Shown here in pieces: positions 6,898-54,493 of a DNA stretch of 64,000 nucleotides. The notes under the pieces are model-generated. The model ran no database searches and was not told the origin of the DNA. It saw nothing but the letters and a program-made list of their open reading frames with translations. Location: the sequence record MH051913; one strand, given 5' to 3'. This DNA is from Enterobacteria phage vB_EcoM_IME281. Every line of letters starts with the position of its first letter. Position 1 is the stretch's first letter. A program made the position numbers and the translations under genes.

Positions 6898-7197
6898 ATG
6901 AAAACTTATCAAGAATTTATTACAGAAGCCAAAGCCCCTAAAGCATTTCAAATTGGAGTCCAAGGCACTTTAGACCAAGAATATGTTGACGCTATTGTAG
7001 CAAGCCTCGGTAAACAAGGTGTACAAGTGGATTTGGTTGATTTTACTAAAGGCAACACTTTTAATATTGTTACATCTAAAGGCTCTTTAGCTAAAGTTAA
7101 AAAGGCCTTTGGTGTAGCCCAAGCATACGAAATCGACCACTCTGAATTAGAAAATAAAGGTCGCCAGAATACAATTAAAGGTTCTGGTTCTTTCTAA
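6898..7197 (+). CDS. internal protein with capsid targeting sequence
   Basis: Begins MKTYQEFITEA (CTS motif); 99 aa. Confidence 0.65.
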   Translation: MKTYQEFITEAKAPKAFQIGVQGTLDQEYVDAIVASLGKQGVQVDLVDFTKGNTFNIVTSKGSLAKVKKAFGVAQAYEIDHSELENKGRQNTIKGSGSF

Positions 7198-7293
7198 TAA
7201 AGGCAAGCCGACCCTCTCCTCATGAACGTCGCGTCCTCTGAGTGATGGACCTTTCCCTACCTGTAATAAGGTCGAGCCCAAGTGCGGTAAAGG

Positions 7294-7322
7294 GTTTACA
7301 TACGGATACATGGATGAATTAT
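7294..7322 (+). promoter_or_regulatory. possible early promoter
   Basis: GTTTAC-N17-AATTAT; weaker -10. Confidence 0.35.
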
Positions 7323-7356
7323 GTGCCAAGGAACGGCCCCTCTACTGGAAACCACT

Positions 7357-7884
7357 ATGAAATTTTTAACTCCCATTTATCTAACCTTAATGCACGCCTT
7401 CGCTGAACGCGCCATTGAACGTTTAGACTCGGACCAATATACCTGGTACGAACCCACTTCAAGAATGCAAGAGTTTGGTACTCTTCGACTTGACGGCGGG
7501 CGTCAAACAGGTAAAACAAGTGCCCTTGCCCAGTTCGCAGCTGATTGGGTTTCCAAGGGTAATGATGTGATTGTTATGTCAAGTTCTTCGCATCGCTCAC
7601 GAGAAATCTGTAATATAATAAAAAGGGTTTCTAAGGCCCAACCGCACCTTCAAGTAGAAGGTCCTGGGTTTGTTGTATATGATACCGTGCGTTCATTTTT
7701 AGACGAAGACAACTTCCATAAGTATCGTGGTCTATCAGTTACTCGATTATTGATTATTATCGAAGAGCCAATGCGCCTTCCATCGATGGATAAGTTCTAT
7801 GAAGCTTACCAGGTAATGATTAACAAATTTATGTGCCAGGGTTCTAAACCTCTGCCACTGTTCTTTGTGATAGGAATGCAATGA
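7357..7884 (+). CDS. hypothetical P-loop NTPase
   Basis: Walker A-like GGRQTGKTS; start taken at MKFLTPIY; weak promoter upstream. Confidence 0.55.
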   Translation: MKFLTPIYLTLMHAFAERAIERLDSDQYTWYEPTSRMQEFGTLRLDGGRQTGKTSALAQFAADWVSKGNDVIVMSSSSHRSREICNIIKRVSKAQPHLQVEGPGFVVYDTVRSFLDEDNFHKYRGLSVTRLLIIIEEPMRLPSMDKFYEAYQVMINKFMCQGSKPLPLFFVIGMQ

Positions 7885-8177
7885 TGACTGATGAAGAGCT
7901 TTTTGAGTTCTGCTATTTCTCACGTAAGGTTCGAAGAGAGGACCTTACTGCAAATTTCGAATATGCTTATTTCTATCCATTAGAGTATGTATTCATGTCA
8001 GGGCCCTTTAAGGGCTCTCGTTTTAGATGTCATGCCCCAAGCATCCGATTAATGAAACAGGTTCCTTACTTCACTCTCGAGTTCATCTCTGGGCCGTGTA
8101 AGGGTATTATTACTCGCAGTCTCTTGACGTATGACCAAGAGATTCATATGATTTCTGACTGGAAAAAATATGTCTAA
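7881..8177 (+). CDS. hypothetical protein
   Basis: 98-aa ORF, ATGA-coupled to upstream gene. Confidence 0.5.
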   Translation: MMTDEELFEFCYFSRKVRREDLTANFEYAYFYPLEYVFMSGPFKGSRFRCHAPSIRLMKQVPYFTLEFISGPCKGIITRSLLTYDQEIHMISDWKKYV

Positions 8178-8388
8178 ATTGACTATTGAAGGTTCTGAAG
8201 AAGTTCTGAAGATGTTTGTTGACTGGTTCCACGAGCAAGGCGAACAAGGCTTTATGGAATGTTGGGGCGGCGGCCAATGGAATGGTAAAGAAATTGTTTA
8301 CCCGACCACGTATATCTCTGTTAGTGGTGGATATGATGGCCTTCGTTTTGTAGAATATGATATTGCATCTGATGAGGAAGTAAAATGA
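8170..8388 (+). CDS. hypothetical protein
   Basis: 72-aa ORF, overlapping coupled start. Confidence 0.5.
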   Translation: MSKLTIEGSEEVLKMFVDWFHEQGEQGFMECWGGGQWNGKEIVYPTTYISVSGGYDGLRFVEYDIASDEEVK

Positions 8389-8663
8389 TTGAAGATATCA
8401 AAGGTTACAAGCCGCATACCGACGATAAAATCGGTAAAGTGAATGCCATTAAAGATGCTGAAGTTCGATTAGGCTTAATCTTTAAAGCATTAGAAGAAGA
8501 ATACGTTGAAGCCTTTACATGCTCAGGTGTCGATAAAATGAGTGATGAAGAATTCGACCTCACTCATGAACGTCTCGCCCAGATTCGTACGGCAATCGAA
8601 CGCTTGAAAGAAGCATCCATGTGGGCCTGTCGTTCCGTTTTCCAACCTGAAGAAAAATACTAA
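8385..8663 (+). CDS. hypothetical protein
   Basis: 92-aa ORF, ATGA overlap. Confidence 0.5.
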   Translation: MIEDIKGYKPHTDDKIGKVNAIKDAEVRLGLIFKALEEEYVEAFTCSGVDKMSDEEFDLTHERLAQIRTAIERLKEASMWACRSVFQPEEKY

Positions 8664-8668
8664 AAGCA

Positions 8669-8718
8669 GTTTACATCTCCTGTAGACGTGGTACTATAGA
8701 CCTATCAACTACAGGAGA
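8669..8718 (+). promoter_or_regulatory. early promoter cassette (PeSL-like) upstream of regB
   Basis: GTTTAC-N18-TACTAT; same CTCCTGTAG/CTACAGGAG inverted repeat as at denV. Confidence 0.7.
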
Positions 8719-8725
8719 TTACAAA

Positions 8726-9184
8726 ATGTCAGAAATTAATTCAGAAGTATTCATCCGCCGCAACAAATTACGTCGTCAGTTCGAAACCGAATTTCGTGAA
8801 CTTAACGCGTCCATCAAAAAAGCCGCCATTAAGAGCGGTGTCCCAGCTTTCTTTATTAAGTACTCTAATCACTTGTTGGACCGTGCTATCCAACGTGAAA
8901 TTGACGAAAAATATGTTTTCTCTTTGTTCAAGAAGCTCCATAACCATGTTAAAGAAATCCATGAATTTTTAATCCAGGAGCCTCTTCCTGACATAGAATC
9001 TGAAATTGTCCCAGGTAAAGTGTATCGTCCACTGCGTCTCGAGATTACTGATAAAACCTTATGGTTGGGTATGACCGTAGATCGTAAACATCCTGATAAA
9101 GGATATTCATTAAAATGTCGTATGGCATTTGTTAACTCTAAACGTTTAGAAGGTAAAACCAGCACGAAAGTAATCTATCTTTAA
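8726..9184 (+). CDS. regB: RegB endoribonuclease (cleaves GGAG in early mRNAs)
   Basis: 152 aa collinear with T4 RegB (EVFIRRNKLRR...HLLDRAIQREIDE...RLEITD); early promoter cassette upstream. Confidence 0.9.
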   Translation: MSEINSEVFIRRNKLRRQFETEFRELNASIKKAAIKSGVPAFFIKYSNHLLDRAIQREIDEKYVFSLFKKLHNHVKEIHEFLIQEPLPDIESEIVPGKVYRPLRLEITDKTLWLGMTVDRKHPDKGYSLKCRMAFVNSKRLEGKTSTKVIYL

Positions 9185-9196
9185 TAATGAGGTCTC

Positions 9197-9736
9197 ATGA
9201 AAAAAGTATTAGCCACTTTACTATTGACAGTTAGTATGTCTGCCTATAGCGTAGAGCCTACTTTCAGTAATGAACAACTCGATAATTTACATTATGCGTA
9301 TGCTTTCGGTGAACAATACCAAAAGTCGGGAAAGTTCAAAGAAAACCCTAATCAAAAAGGATTAGGATATATAATGGCCGGATTATTATGGCAGGAATCA
9401 TCTGCTGGAATTAATCAAGGTTTAAATAAAGATAAGCACCATGCTTATGGCATGTTCCAAAATTACTTGCCTACGTTAAGAAGTCGTGTTAAACAGGTAG
9501 GTTGGAAGATGTCAGACAAAGAAATAATCCGTATGGTCCAAAAACGACAGAACAGTGCCTCTTGGGCCTACATTGAGCTGTCTTATTGGATTGATGTTCA
9601 CAAAGGTGACCTGAGAAAAGCGATTGCTTCTTATAATGCGGGCTGGAATGTCAAAGCAGGCAGTAAATATGCTTCCGAAGTTCTAGAAAAGGCCAATTAC
9701 CTAAAATCTAAAAAGATGTTTGAGGCGGTGTATTAA
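9197..9736 (+). CDS. secreted lytic transglycosylase-like (SLT domain) protein
   Basis: Signal peptide; SLT motifs LWQESS and AYNAG; position matches T4 vs.1. Confidence 0.65.
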   Translation: MKKVLATLLLTVSMSAYSVEPTFSNEQLDNLHYAYAFGEQYQKSGKFKENPNQKGLGYIMAGLLWQESSAGINQGLNKDKHHAYGMFQNYLPTLRSRVKQVGWKMSDKEIIRMVQKRQNSASWAYIELSYWIDVHKGDLRKAIASYNAGWNVKAGSKYASEVLEKANYLKSKKMFEAVY

Positions 9737-10093
9737 ATGATTAAGCAGATGACTATAGCGCTTATGTTGATTGCTCCGGGAGTATTAGCGTCACAAGTTG
9801 ATGATAGTAATAATTCAATTGTCGAGTATGCTACCCGTACAGCAAAAGATTATTGTCATCCGAGTAATACTGAATGCATTATCGAATTCAGTTCAAAAAT
9901 CACAGCTGCTTTTAAAGATGGCCAGAATGACGTAGAGCATCGCCGAATGAAAGAGAAAACTCTTTCTAAAAGATACGAGCAACGTCTAAACGTTACTGAA
10001 TGTATTCCATCTGATAAAAAGTACAAAGAAATGTGCGCGTCTATGGTAGACAGACTCGTTGATTCATACAATCGAGGATTAAATTCTAAATGA
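9737..10093 (+). CDS. hypothetical secreted protein
   Basis: N-terminal signal peptide-like segment; 118 aa. Confidence 0.5.
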   Translation: MIKQMTIALMLIAPGVLASQVDDSNNSIVEYATRTAKDYCHPSNTECIIEFSSKITAAFKDGQNDVEHRRMKEKTLSKRYEQRLNVTECIPSDKKYKEMCASMVDRLVDSYNRGLNSK

Positions 10094-10569
10094 TTATTGA
10101 TTATATTAAGGGCGATATTGTCGCCCTATTTCTCCAAGGTAATATTATTGCACACGGGTGCAACTGTTTCCACACAATGGGTTCTGGCGTAGCCGGACAG
10201 TTGGCAAAGGCTTATCCAAAAGTTTTAGAAATAGATAAAACCTCTACTGAATATGGTTCTCGTGATAAATTAGGCAATATGTCTATTGTTTTTAAACATA
10301 AGCCTACAGGTTTTGGCATGTGCTATAACTTGTATACGCAATACGAACCAGGCCCTAATCTTGATTATGGCGCTTTAGTAAATTGTATGATAGAATTAAA
10401 TCTACAAGCAGAAACCCTTTTGTTTAAACCAAGAATTTATATCCCTCGCATTGGTTGTGGTATTGCAGGTGGAGATTGGGAAAAGGTTTCTAAATTAATC
10501 AACATGTTTACTCCTGACATTGATCTGATAGTGGTGGATTATGAAAGCCCATTACCCGCATCCGTTTGA
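10090..10569 (+). CDS. macrodomain protein (ADP-ribose binding / hydrolase fold)
   Basis: Macro motifs NIIAHGCNC..MGSGVAGQLA and IPRIGCGIAGGDWEKV. Confidence 0.75.
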   Translation: MIIDYIKGDIVALFLQGNIIAHGCNCFHTMGSGVAGQLAKAYPKVLEIDKTSTEYGSRDKLGNMSIVFKHKPTGFGMCYNLYTQYEPGPNLDYGALVNCMIELNLQAETLLFKPRIYIPRIGCGIAGGDWEKVSKLINMFTPDIDLIVVDYESPLPASV

Positions 10570-10753
10570 CCCTAAAAACAAAGCGGAAATTATTCGACGC
10601 TGGACCGAAACTCGAGTAACTAAATGTCCTATAAAAAGTCAACACAACACCGATAAATGGTATATTGGCGAATATGTTGAATATACTTTTATAGATAAAA
10701 ATAAACGTAAACAGCACGTAGAAGAATATTGCTTAAAGGTACAATGGTTATGA
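10541..10753 (+). CDS. hypothetical protein
   Basis: 70-aa ORF overlapping macrodomain 3' end; uncertain. Confidence 0.35.
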   Translation: MKAHYPHPFDPKNKAEIIRRWTETRVTKCPIKSQHNTDKWYIGEYVEYTFIDKNKRKQHVEEYCLKVQWL

Positions 10754-10956
10754 GCCAAGCCCGAATTCTTAAAACGGCTAAATGTGAAAAATGCGAATGG
10801 CCAGTAATCGCAGCTTTATGCAACGATGAAATGGAATGTGAATTTGATTACTGGTGGTACTGTTCTAATAAAGGATGTTCTAATCATAAGGGTGAAGGTT
10901 TTCATTCTGGTTATTGTGAACATCCTAAATTTGTGCGATATGGTGAACCTAAATGA
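10729..10956 (+). CDS. hypothetical Cys-rich (likely Zn-binding) protein
   Basis: Multiple CxxC-like pairs (CEKCEW...CSNKGCSNH...CEH). Confidence 0.5.
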   Translation: MLKGTMVMSQARILKTAKCEKCEWPVIAALCNDEMECEFDYWWYCSNKGCSNHKGEGFHSGYCEHPKFVRYGEPK

Positions 10957-11126
10957 GTTTGAGTAAAGAACAAAAAGATAAATTGTTTGAGCTTATCCAT
11001 GAGCTCATGGAACTTAATACAGAATGTGAATTTGATAACTCTCTAGACTGGGATTGGCATGCTGGTGAAGAAGATGAGTTTTCTAAAAAGGAAAATGAAT
11101 TAATTGCTTATGTAAATAGTCTTTAA
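10953..11126 (+). CDS. hypothetical small acidic protein
   Basis: 57-codon ORF (not in track), ATGA-coupled. Confidence 0.4.
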   Translation: MSLSKEQKDKLFELIHELMELNTECEFDNSLDWDWHAGEEDEFSKKENELIAYVNSL

Positions 11127-11135
11127 GAAGGTAAT

Positions 11136-11708
11136 ATGGCTCAACTTTATTTTCACTATGCTGCAATGAATTCTGGGAAAACTGCTTCATTGCTAACAGC
11201 CGCTCATAACTACAAAGAACGCGGTATGGGCGTACTCCTTTTAAAGCCTGCGATAGACAATAGAGAATCAAGCCATAGCATTTCATCTCGTATAGGGATT
11301 AGCCAGGAGGCTAATGCAGTGACTCCGGATATGGACCTATACGAGTTCTATCGTTGGGCTGAATCTCAAAAAGATATCCACTGTGTATTTGTGGATGAAG
11401 CACAGTTCTTAGAACCGGCACAGATAAAACAACTGGCGAAGATAGTAGACAATTATAATGTTCCAGTTATGTGCTATGGGCTAAGAACTGATTTTCAGGG
11501 TAAACTGTTTCCTGGCTCTGCTGAATTACTCGCTACAGCAGATAAACTCGTTGAGTACAAAGGTGTGTGCCACTGTGGCCGTAAAGCTACTATGACTGCT
11601 AGGGTCCAAGATGGTATCGCAATTAAGGACGGCGCCCAAGTTTCTATAGGTGGCAACGATTCTTACGTGTCATTGTGCAGGAAGCACTGGATAGAAATAA
11701 CGAGTTGA
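11136..11708 (+). CDS. tk: thymidine kinase
   Basis: P-loop NSGKTAS, Zn-ribbon CHCGRKAT; collinear with T4 Tk. Confidence 0.95.
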   Translation: MAQLYFHYAAMNSGKTASLLTAAHNYKERGMGVLLLKPAIDNRESSHSISSRIGISQEANAVTPDMDLYEFYRWAESQKDIHCVFVDEAQFLEPAQIKQLAKIVDNYNVPVMCYGLRTDFQGKLFPGSAELLATADKLVEYKGVCHCGRKATMTARVQDGIAIKDGAQVSIGGNDSYVSLCRKHWIEITS

Positions 11709-11715
11709 GGGTACT

Positions 11716-11994
11716 ATGGACCTAAATTCAAAGATTTTAATTCTAGCGTTCGCTGTGGCTATTTCTTACATTGTTCTTTCGCCTATCATGGATGATGCGG
11801 CTTACAAAAGAGAGATAGAAGTTGTAGCAGCGACGTATAATGCTAATAATAAAGAATGCCCTAATAAAAATGGAATGGATTTAATTAAAGCACATTATAT
11901 GCTTTCCATTACCTCGCCTATACAGAGGAATTGGGTTGAATATAATTTTAACGACGTGTTCTATTCTTATTGTCGTAAGCTTAAAAAGCTATAA
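11716..11994 (+). CDS. hypothetical membrane protein (position of T4 rI.-1)
   Basis: N-terminal TM segment; 92 aa; between tk and rI. Confidence 0.5.
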   Translation: MDLNSKILILAFAVAISYIVLSPIMDDAAYKREIEVVAATYNANNKECPNKNGMDLIKAHYMLSITSPIQRNWVEYNFNDVFYSYCRKLKKL

Positions 11995-11997
11995 ATA
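11990..11997 (+). promoter_or_regulatory. late promoter upstream of rI
   Basis: Exact TATAAATA. Confidence 0.5.
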
Positions 11998-12087
11998 GTA
12001 ATACTAACCGTAGAGCTTTAGCTTTTGGTAATCGCTATCGGTTAAGGCCGAAAGGCAAATTCGTATAAAATAACAAAGGACTTTTGT

Positions 12088-12381
12088 ATGGGTATTTTCC
12101 GTACAGTGGCTTGTATCCTTATGATTGGATGTTTAAGCCCAACATCTTCACTAGCAAACAAATCCGACCCTAAATTGATGGACGCCTTTGCTAGTAGTGC
12201 GATGCCAGTTTATGCGCAAATGAGTAAACCTAGTGTAAAGGCCTCCGAAGACTACTGGGCTTATGTAACTGCTTCTTGGAAAATTTCAAATTGCAATACA
12301 ATAGAGTCTTGCTCGATTGAAGGTCGGGCTATCGGAGAACGATACGCTAAACTAATGAAGGTAGATGATGAAATTCAATGA
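12088..12381 (+). CDS. rI: RI antiholin-like lysis inhibition protein
   Basis: 97 aa, N-terminal signal anchor, C-terminal C..C-I-E-x-x-A-x-x-YA..M pattern as in T4 RI; adjacent to tk; TATAAATA upstream. Confidence 0.65.
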   Translation: MGIFRTVACILMIGCLSPTSSLANKSDPKLMDAFASSAMPVYAQMSKPSVKASEDYWAYVTASWKISNCNTIESCSIEGRAIGERYAKLMKVDDEIQ

Positions 12382-12751
12382 TTTCGTACTTAGTCGAGGG
12401 ACTGAAGTAGATTCTTATATTGGTTGGCTGTTGGTTTCTTTAGCCTATTTTAAGTCAGCCCATTTGGAAACCAAAAGCTATGCAAGACACAAAGCATATG
12501 ACTTCTATTATACAGAAGTTCAAGGACCACTAGACCAGTTCAGTGAACAGTATTTAGGATTTAGTGGCAAAGAATATAAAGCATCACTACCATCTGCTTC
12601 AGAACTGCCTAAAGACCCCATAGATTTTCTTGATGAACTTATTAAAGCGTCTGATAAAATCTACAAAAATCTTCCTAAGGCCATCCAATCGACTTTGGAC
12701 GACATCACTGGTGTCTTTTACCAGACTAAGTATTTGTTAACGTTAGAATAA
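12365..12751 (+). CDS. hypothetical protein (position of T4 rI.1)
   Basis: 128-aa ORF followed by intrinsic terminator. Confidence 0.5.
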   Translation: MMKFNDFVLSRGTEVDSYIGWLLVSLAYFKSAHLETKSYARHKAYDFYYTEVQGPLDQFSEQYLGFSGKEYKASLPSASELPKDPIDFLDELIKASDKIYKNLPKAIQSTLDDITGVFYQTKYLLTLE

Positions 12752-48103: not shown

Positions 48104-48397
48104 ATGAAAAAGTTATTAATCGCAGCAATCCTTACAGTAGCATCATGTGGCACAGCTCCAGTTACAGCTGGGTTGGATAAAGACCTTTGTGAATGGTCTA
48201 TGACTGCAGACCAAGAATCAGTTGAACATCAGATTTATGCTGATATCATGAACATCACTAAACGTGACCGTCCTGATATGGTTAAAGAAGTATCCGACCA
48301 ATTGGCTTCTAGCGGTGTTATGCAGTATAACTATGTTCTGTACTGTGATGCTAATTTCGATAACAAAAATATCGTTAAAGAGGTGACAGGTGAATAA
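48104..48397 (+). CDS. secreted/lipoprotein, spackle-like by size and position
   Basis: Signal peptide with lipobox-like VASC; 97 aa; lies in the 41-61 interval where T4 sp is. Confidence 0.5.
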   Translation: MKKLLIAAILTVASCGTAPVTAGLDKDLCEWSMTADQESVEHQIYADIMNITKRDRPDMVKEVSDQLASSGVMQYNYVLYCDANFDNKNIVKEVTGE

Positions 48398-48830
48398 GAT
48401 TAACAGAAATTTGGTTATCAAAAAACTTCGTTGTAAAAATCCAAATGCCCAGGCATACAGAATGTATTGGAGCGACGACCATCAATACCTGGGTTATTTT
48501 ATTGTTGATAGCGATGATAGGATTGTATTTGCCCATAAACTTCTTAATAGAGAATTAAACCACTGGCAAGAACTTATTGCTGTTAAGTCTAAATTATTTT
48601 CGCGCAATACAATACACCAATTGGTTTATTTTTTCGCTGATGGTTTTCCTGACAAGGTTGAATTTGAAGGATTCGAATTTAAAGATATCCTCCCGGACAA
48701 TGAATTTAACGACTGCGTTAATATGGATATCCCTAGCAAGTATATCAAAAACAGTCTGTTGAAAATTCTGGAAGCTCCGGTTTATTCAATCGACGACCAG
48801 ATTTTTAATGCCTTTATGAATCGAGGTTGA
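48390..48830 (+). CDS. hypothetical protein
   Basis: 146-aa ORF. Confidence 0.5.
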   Translation: MNKINRNLVIKKLRCKNPNAQAYRMYWSDDHQYLGYFIVDSDDRIVFAHKLLNRELNHWQELIAVKSKLFSRNTIHQLVYFFADGFPDKVEFEGFEFKDILPDNEFNDCVNMDIPSKYIKNSLLKILEAPVYSIDDQIFNAFMNRG

Positions 48831-53254: not shown

Positions 53255-53824
53255 ATGAACATCGAACAAAAATGTCTTTATCAAGACCGAATCAATTCCA
53301 AATTTTCAAAATCTGAACAAGCCTTGTTAGAGAAATGTCTGGATGCCAAAAAGGACCCTAACTTCCATTACGACCTTGACAAACTGGTTCGTAAGCATGT
53401 TACTTCGGCCGTTCCCGTAGAGTTGTATCGTGGGATTACCACCAGAGAACTTGAGCAATTAGAGCTCCTTTCAGTAGGATGTCAATGGTCTCCTGGTCGA
53501 GTTACTTCTTTTAGTACACAATACTCTCAGGCTCGTCAGTTCGCAGGGTCATGGGAATATGGAACCAAAACCATTTTAAGTCTCAGGAATGCACCCTTCA
53601 TTTTTGACTACTACAATCATGCTATCGACCTTGTTCTTGCAGGGAATGTAGACGAACTCGAAATAGATGAAACCCGTATTGACCTCTATGATATGGTTGA
53701 AACTGAATGTGAGTTCATGGTCTCTAGTCTATCGCGATTTGAGATTGTGGAAATCGAAACTATCAAAAGAGACCCATATGACATCGAGTACAAAATAATT
53801 CATTTAAAAATGTTATATTTTTAG
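53255..53824 (+). CDS. ADP-ribosyltransferase, ModA/ModB-like
   Basis: R-S-E triad candidates LYRGIT, SFST, ECEFMV; position between soc and dda as T4 modA/modB. Confidence 0.7.
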   Translation: MNIEQKCLYQDRINSKFSKSEQALLEKCLDAKKDPNFHYDLDKLVRKHVTSAVPVELYRGITTRELEQLELLSVGCQWSPGRVTSFSTQYSQARQFAGSWEYGTKTILSLRNAPFIFDYYNHAIDLVLAGNVDELEIDETRIDLYDMVETECEFMVSSLSRFEIVEIETIKRDPYDIEYKIIHLKMLYF

Positions 53825-53878: not shown

Positions 53879-54493
53879 ATGTTATATCCAAGCCATAAAT
53901 TAGCAGAATTTATCAACAATGCCAAATGCGATGATTTCCGTGAGAATACTCAGATAGAAATTGATGAGGTGTATTCTGATTTAGAACAGAGCACGCTCTG
54001 GCAGTGTATGGAAAATAAACCTGATTCTATCCAGGAAACTCTGAACAAAATTATTCGTAAGAACCTGACTTCTGTAGTGCCTGATAAGCTCTATCGCGGT
54101 ATATCTAAAAAGACCCTGAAGTATCTAGAGTCCACAATGTGTGTGGGTGCGGTAATTGAATTCGACCGTGTGATGAGCTTCTCTAAAGACTTCAACGTAG
54201 CAAGGAATTTCGCATCTTATAACTTCTACGGCACATTTAATATCTTTTGTATTAATGATGCGCCATTTGTGTACAATTATCAGGAAGAAATCTTTAAAAT
54301 GTTATGTGCTGCGCCCCCTGAAGAGTTCCCAGGCGCATTTCCTGAATCTACACGTGTAGCAAACTTACAATTAATTAATGATGAAGATGAGATGATGTTC
54401 CCTGCGGGAACTACGCTGCGCGTAGACTCTATTGAGAGAAATCCTAAATGGAATAATTACACCATTTGGAATCTTTCCGTTCTTTCTTACTGA
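53879..54493 (+). CDS. ADP-ribosyltransferase, ModA/ModB-like paralog
   Basis: LYRGIS, SFSK, EDEMMF; tandem paralog of the preceding gene. Confidence 0.7.
   Translation: MLYPSHKLAEFINNAKCDDFRENTQIEIDEVYSDLEQSTLWQCMENKPDSIQETLNKIIRKNLTSVVPDKLYRGISKKTLKYLESTMCVGAVIEFDRVMSFSKDFNVARNFASYNFYGTFNIFCINDAPFVYNYQEEIFKMLCAAPPEEFPGAFPESTRVANLQLINDEDEMMFPAGTTLRVDSIERNPKWNNYTIWNLSVLSY

Follow-up and report, generated by a model that had tools for sequence, protein, structure and literature searches.

The tk.4 locus and its annotation

The window analysed here is the whole 64,000-nucleotide stretch of DNA from Enterobacteria phage vB_EcoM_IME281 (sequence record MH051913). It contains an open reading frame of 159 codons plus a TGA stop codon, beginning at ATG, which a first-pass annotation made from the sequence alone had described as encoding a stand-alone macrodomain protein with two signature regions. 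The limits, strand and length of the frame are as described (Table 1), both signature regions are present in the translation (NIIAHGCNC..MGSGVAGQLAKA, residues 18-41, and IPRIGCGIAGGDWEKV, residues 118-133), and a single domain occupies the 159 residues, as expected of a stand-alone protein. The product matches the Pfam Macro family (PF01661; E=1.2e-7, profile positions 2-117 of 118) with a score of 32.1 bits, which exceeds the gathering cut-off of 22 bits and thus establishes family membership. Since it also matches PHROG 335 (E=1.9e-71), and since relatives were detected by tblastn in 2761 of 50,697 phage records, the frame is a genuine, intact gene as opposed to a chance reading frame.

The flanking ORFs were identified with PHROGs. 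The resultant gene order, regB-vs.1-vs-tk.4-tk.3-tk, is that annotated in phages JS98, RB27 and T4, and the region between positions 9000 and 12000 shares ~95% nucleotide identity with JS98-like T-even phages of the genus Dhakavirus. Alignment of the macrodomain protein with T4 Tk.4 extends without gaps over 155 amino acids, with 55% identity and 74% positives (E=7e-68). Given this gapless identity and the conserved gene order, the gene is a syntenic ortholog of T4 tk.4. It occupies the same slot between vs and tk.3, upstream of tk, and the residues H22, N25, N80, Q84 and W130 are identical in the two proteins. Conversely, the two proteins differ at 45% of residues, and in the second loop the window protein has GCGIAGGDW where T4 Tk.4 has GAGIGKGNW; its C terminus is 4 amino acids longer, and the overlap of its gene with tk.3 is 29 nt rather than the 4 nt found in T4. 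The start codon of tk.4 shares an ATGA sequence with the stop codon of vs, which suggests that the two genes are translationally coupled in this closely packed array of co-directional genes; the coordinates of T4 vs and tk.4 give the identical four-base overlap. The N termini of the vs.1 and vs products are hydrophobic and resemble signal peptides (MKKVLATLLLTVSMSAYS... and MIKQMTIALMLIAPGVLAS..., respectively). Previous work tied vs.1 weakly to SLT transglycosylases (PMC1524935), and vs was the T4 gene most strongly depleted in minimal medium in a transposon study (HIDEN-SEQ preprint, bioRxiv 10.1101/2025.11.20.689424).

The macro (A1pp) domain of tk.4 orthologs has been on record since 2006 (PMC1524935). 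The RefSeq entry for JS98 tk.4 reads 'phosphatase; contains A1pp phosphatase motif', other records use 'macro domain protein', 'Poa1p-like family protein' or 'O-acetyl-ADP-ribose deacetylase', and many GenBank records name the gene 'phosphatase' or 'hypothetical protein'. The gene is therefore already known, under the annotation tk.4 and, in T4, the name adfM, and the first-pass annotation overrated its novelty, since RefSeq holds tk.4 with its A1pp motif and a function has already been reported. The present analysis amounts to correct annotation and not to a discovery: the proper name is tk.4/adfM, and the product a putative anti-DarTG2 DNA ADP-ribosylglycohydrolase.

Table 1. Positions in the window of tk.4, its sequence features and the other genes discussed
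Feature	Position	Strand	Basis or remark
vs.1	9197-9736	+	upstream of vs
vs	9737-10093	+	PHROG 1256; directly upstream of tk.4
ATGA overlap of tk.4 start codon with vs stop codon	10090..10093	+	sequence read directly
tk.4/adfM ortholog (159-aa stand-alone macrodomain protein)	10090..10569, stop codon included	+	ATG-to-TGA ORF
First ADP-ribose-binding loop (predicted), codons H22-A35 (HGCNCFHTMGSGVA)	10153..10194	+	61-sequence alignment, profile alignment, MAFFT
Codons N80-Q84 (NLYTQ)	10327..10341	+	profile and MAFFT alignments
Q84 codon (caa)	10339-10341	+	position of catalytic Lys in TARG1/DarG
Second loop, glycine-rich, diphosphate-binding (predicted), codons P119-W130 (PRIGCGIAGGDW)	10444..10479	+	alignments
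tk.3 ortholog, 70 aa	10541..10753	+	PHROG 2008, JS98 annotation; start overlaps tk.4 3' end by 29 nt
146-aa ORF between sp and 61.1	48390-48830	+	PHROG 8539
modB-like ADP-ribosyltransferase	53255-53824	+	PHROG 832, JS98 modB
modA-like ADP-ribosyltransferase	53879-54493	+	PHROG 832, JS98 modA

Fold class and active-site residues

An AlphaFold2 model of the protein was prepared from an alignment of 61 sequences (pLDDT 94, pTM 0.89), and predicts the three-layer alpha/beta/alpha macro fold. The highest match values of the model against known structures were obtained with BT1257 (18.2), M. tuberculosis DarG (17.4), yeast Poa1p (17.2), Thermosipho DarG (16.8) and human TARG1 (16.6), all of which are ALC1-like; a clear gap separates these five from the next matches, to MacroD-type and viral macrodomains, with values of 13.5 or below. 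Foldseek returned the same set, with TARG1/OARD1 as top match (E=2.8e-9, TM 0.73-0.82). A search with the Tk.4-family profile similarly gave BT1257 as best match (2.5e-19), followed by TARG1 (2.9e-16) and SCO6735 (3e-16), and searching the PDB with no more than the last 98 residues added nothing to the profile result. The PF01661 match, the AlphaFold2 model and the Foldseek result together bear out the macrodomain assignment. With regard to subfamily, for which the first-pass annotation had looked to structure prediction, the modelled structure places Tk.4 in the ALC1-like class, which includes TARG1, DarG, Poa1p and SCO6735, as opposed to the MacroD-type, PARG-type or viral classes.

Two glycine-rich segments, MGSGVAG (residues 30-36) and GCGIAGG (residues 122-128), are predicted from the sequence to form the ADP-ribose- and diphosphate-binding loops. 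The first loop was aligned by profile to 5e3b, 2fg1 and 4j5r, and the table of equivalent residues was derived from a MAFFT alignment. The 61-sequence alignment shows no variation at H22, G23, N25, C26, G33 or A35. The SCO6735 equivalents of H22 and N25 are H24 and N27, and N25 aligns additionally with N22 of DarG and N23 of PhiKZ AdfM. The catalytic position, on which the profile and MAFFT alignments concur, is occupied by Q84, where TARG1 has K84, DarG K80 and PhiKZ AdfM K78, and where SCO6735 has Gln85 and BT1257 also has Gln. Counting SCO6735 residues from the alignment recovers the published H24, N27, K34, Q85 and K89 and so confirms the register. All 200 homologs examined (120 from phages and metagenomes, 80 bacterial) have glutamine here, and H22, N25, N80, G122, G124 and W130 are likewise invariant among them, the only exceptions being gaps where two or three sequences are partial. 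With PRIGCGIAGG as its second loop, the protein follows the BT1257/SCO6735 pattern (PRIGCGLAGG) and not that of DarG (PPLGxGNGGL). The window protein retains every active-site residue that is invariant in its homologs, and mutagenesis of AdfM should be directed at Q84, N25 and H22 rather than at a DarG-like lysine.

SCO6735 of Streptomyces is a stand-alone macrodomain of the Gln type that strips thymidine-linked ADP-ribose from DNA and shields S. coelicolor against DarT; its Q85A variant is inactive on DNA and protein substrates, and the authors proposed that the glutamine positions the distal ribose in a water- or substrate-assisted reaction (PMC9411070). Both SCO6735 (PDB 5E3B) and Bacteroides BT1257 (PDB 2AFC/2FG1) show ~30% identity to the window protein. 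The constellation of His, Asn and Gln (H22, N25 and Q84) is common to Tk.4 and SCO6735, from which a SCO6735-like chemistry would be the most economical reading for Tk.4. However, the lysines that position DNA in SCO6735, K34 and K89, are replaced by S32 and G88 in the window protein and mostly by Ala and Gly among phage and metagenome homologs in the MAFFT alignment; since they are not conserved in the phage family, Tk.4 would have to engage DNA differently from SCO6735. In addition, Tk.4 has invariant HGCNC and NLYTQ motifs of its own, unlike SCO6735 and BT1257, and has no counterpart of the longer loop found after the glutamine in both. Human TARG1/OARD1 (PDB 4J5S) has the histidine and the PRIGCG loop in common with the window protein, whereas its catalytic dyad, K84/D125, corresponds to Q84/A126. 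TARG1 also removes thymidine-linked ADP-ribose from DNA (PMC8501950; PMC9411070). For Poa1p, only residues 3-78 align well, His23 falling opposite H22 and Ser30 opposite T29.

Comparison with DarG was made using the PADLOC and NCBIfam models, against which the window protein scored 28.8 and 28.9 bits, T4 Tk.4 36 and 30.3 bits, and PhiKZ gp104 132.9 and 137.8 bits, respectively; the E values against M. tuberculosis DarG were 1.8e-5 for the window protein and 9e-25 for PhiKZ gp104. With ~29 bits against a cut-off of 250 bits for full-length DarG (NCBIfam NF048014), and with glutamine in place of the catalytic Lys80, membership of the DarG family was rejected. DarG (PDB 5M3I, 5M31/5M3E, 7OMU) carries Lys80 within an FPTK motif where the window protein has LYTQ, and it has a DarT-binding domain at its C terminus and is encoded next to darT; neither holds for Tk.4, whose gene is neighboured by vs and tk.3. 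PhiKZ gp104 resembles Tk.4 in being a phage-encoded, stand-alone macrodomain that counters DarTG2. It has been reported to take DarT2-installed ADP-ribose off DNA in vitro, to have N23 and K78 as putative active-site residues, and to enter the phage nucleus by import (Cell Rep 2026, PMC13309987). However, it is a true DarG-like macrodomain with K78 in an FPTK motif and is not an ortholog of Tk.4; assignment of the window protein to the PhiKZ type was discarded on the basis of the HMM scores, the Lys-to-Gln difference and an identity of 20%. The name AdfM has thus been given independently to two non-orthologous proteins, T4 Tk.4 (Gln-type) and PhiKZ gp104 (DarG-like, Lys-type), which should be handled as distinct families with a shared name. 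Judged by these comparisons, Tk.4 is not strictly a DarG-like enzyme, and T-even AdfM would belong to the Gln-type, SCO6735/BT1257-like branch, a subfamily different from those of DarG and the PhiKZ protein. Its chemistry probably differs likewise from the Lys-dependent chemistry of DarG, TARG1 and PhiKZ AdfM. This placement, apart from DarG and the PhiKZ namesake, is the modestly new point of the analysis.

Bacterial relatives and other features of the window

Relatives of Tk.4 are encoded in at least 505 stretches of bacterial genomes, the best 80 of which, from Ruegeria, Hyphomicrobiaceae, Verrucomicrobia, Desulfobacter and others, are at most 44% identical. A tblastn search with a single query, P. 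aeruginosa DarT2, and hence of limited sensitivity, gave no DarT2 match at E up to 1 in the window or in 84 loci, including the 80 bacterial ones, none of which (0/80) had a match within 6 kb of the Tk.4-like gene. Since no DarT2 was found near these 80 relatives, the Tk.4 lineage is a widespread stand-alone macrodomain and not a component of a toxin-antitoxin operon, which is consistent with recruitment by phages independently of DarG. The neighbours of the bacterial genes that were identified are housekeeping genes, such as rpoC, ileS and metH. In Hyphomicrobiaceae and Jannaschia the macrodomain gene lies directly 3' of ileS at four loci (L007, L011, L034 and L044; the upstream gene spans, for example, L007:2644-5958), and in a Ruegeria locus rpoC lies upstream (L017:1385-5809), six further Ruegeria loci having an upstream ORF of a size similar to that of this rpoC. 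A link between tk.4 and aminoacyl-tRNA synthetases, the vs product being a valyl-tRNA synthetase modifier, was considered and set aside: the bacterial neighbour is a class I synthetase gene, but it is ileS, not valS, and the juxtaposition is probably coincidental.

Elsewhere in the window, the 146-aa ORF lies between sp and 61.1, at the position of gene 61.2 in T4. T4 gene 61.2 is adfA, encoding an anti-DarT1 factor, gp61.2, of 208 aa (PHROG 3781). The only part that the two proteins have in common is an identical 14-residue C-terminal tail, SIDDQIFNAFMNRG, and the arrangement looks like a cassette replacement in which the 3' end has been kept. A promoter and terminator scan of positions 7000-12500, together with a MotA-box pattern, gave counts at chance level (17 against 16.0 expected, and 3 against 1.2). 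No tRNA genes were found by ARAGORN, and no Rfam match at the gathering threshold, over the whole window (1-64000).

Anti-DarT function and its alternatives

The first-pass annotation had proposed that the protein might be an anti-defence eraser directed against DarT-type ADP-ribosylation, and this proposal is supported by genetic work on the T4 ortholog, together with the 55% identity, the synteny and the active-site residues. When a T4 transposon library was screened on a DarTG2-expressing host, tk.4 was the single significant hit; a clean tk.4 knockout was sensitised to DarTG2, and the authors of this genetic study, a preprint, renamed the gene adfM ('anti-DarT factor Macrodomain') and proposed that T4 AdfM removes ADP-ribose from DNA (HIDEN-SEQ, bioRxiv 10.1101/2025.11.20.689424). 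The phenotype fits the earlier observation that T4 without both adfA and adfN is still resistant to DarTG2, from which a further anti-DarTG2 factor had been predicted (PMC11257639). The present analysis adds the macrodomain fold, the orthology to T4 Tk.4 and the composition of the active site, and the window gene is probably the Dhakavirus ortholog of T4 tk.4 (adfM) in the functional sense also, i.e. an anti-DarT factor. De-ADP-ribosylation of DNA by the window protein, as by any Tk.4-type protein, is what we infer from these data. In the mechanism envisaged, host DarT2, released upon infection, would ADP-ribosylate thymidines of single-stranded phage DNA, blocking replication; the two glycine-rich loops of Tk.4 would hold the ADP-ribose moiety, and hydrolysis of the thymine-ribose bond would restore the template. 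The catalytic site would comprise the invariant Q84 with H22 and N25, as in SCO6735, and would probably not rely on Lys-dependent chemistry, and the protein, having no DarT-binding domain, would act as an orphan antitoxin enzyme. Against an anti-DarT role may be set an identity to T4 Tk.4 of only 55%, the weak similarity to the DarG models (~29 bits) and the replacement of the SCO6735 lysines. No depletion of TNTC, the motif targeted by DarT2, was seen in the window (observed/expected 1.0, with 0.75 for TCTC and 1.24 for TTTC). This result is uninformative; depletion is not expected where an eraser is present.

The T4 genetics are compatible with catalysis or binding alike, and Tk.4 could feasibly neutralise DarT2 chiefly as an inhibitor that binds the toxin, or as a shield on ADP-ribosylated DNA, as opposed to a hydrolase. 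Indeed, catalytically dead SCO6735 (Q85A), DarG (K80A) and TARG1 (K84A) inhibit DarT in vitro, SCO6735 most strongly (PMC9411070). However, the single-domain, 159-aa Tk.4 lacks the C-terminal DarT-binding domain of DarG, and the ADP-ribose pocket is invariant at every residue across the 200 homologs, among them bacterial proteins whose genes have no DarT2 match close by, a pattern that selection on catalysis would predict; a binding mechanism is accordingly considered unlikely. Much the same low probability is attached to a main role in processing small ADP-ribose derivatives, as an ADP-ribose-1''-phosphate phosphatase or O-acetyl-ADP-ribose deacetylase. A role of this kind is implied by names given in databases, 'phosphatase', 'Poa1p-like' and 'O-acetyl-ADP-ribose deacetylase'; Poa1p is structurally close, and housekeeping genes (rpoC, ileS, metH) adjoin the bacterial homologs. 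The names, however, derive from the A1pp domain match and not from assays (PMC1524935). DarTG2 sensitivity is the sole phenotype on record for the T4 ortholog. Small-molecule activities of this kind are, moreover, common side activities of macrodomains in vitro.

The first-pass annotation had also pointed to two ModA/ModB-like ADP-ribosyltransferases in the same genome, both of which match PHROG 832 'RNA polymerase ADP-ribosylase' (1e-37 and 1.5e-44), and had raised the alternative that the macrodomain regulates the phage's own ADP-ribosylation. The ModA-like protein has a 100% identical counterpart in PQ561406.1 (phage Ec2-ASingh), a record that is probably among the closest public relatives of the window. 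The presence of modA-like and modB-like genes alongside tk.4 is what favours the idea that Tk.4 reverses or tunes the modification of host proteins, through ADP-ribosylation or RNAylation, that Alt, ModA or ModB carries out. The T4 transferases modify arginine, whereas ALC1-like macrodomains are known for acting on Glu/Asp-ester and thymidine linkages (PMC9411070), and are not known to cleave Arg-linked ADP-ribose. Moreover, tk.4 and the mod genes lie ~43 kb apart, no functional link between them was seen, and their distributions across phage records differ: the 2761 records with Tk.4-like genes include Pseudomonas, Vibrio, Acinetobacter and Aeromonas phages, whereas 1062 records carry ModA-like genes, and enterobacterial phages make up all ten of the leading name groups listed for these. 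With Tk.4-like genes so much the more widespread, a regulatory role is unsupported, and appears very improbable.

The anti-DarT reading is therefore retained for the phage protein, although the ancestral role of the Tk.4 lineage need not have been anti-DarT, since no DarT2 match was found within 6 kb of the gene in 80 bacterial relatives and their identified neighbours are housekeeping genes. Whether Tk.4-type AdfM represents the phage branch of a lysine-less, Gln-type ALC1-like lineage and not a captured DarG, such that two macrodomain subfamilies with different chemistry have been recruited against DarT2, is a proposal for which we consider the chances evenly balanced. If it is true, erasure of thymidine-linked ADP-ribose, or of a broader nucleic-acid mark, would be among the commonest of phage counter-defences, homologs being present in about 2,700 phage genomes.
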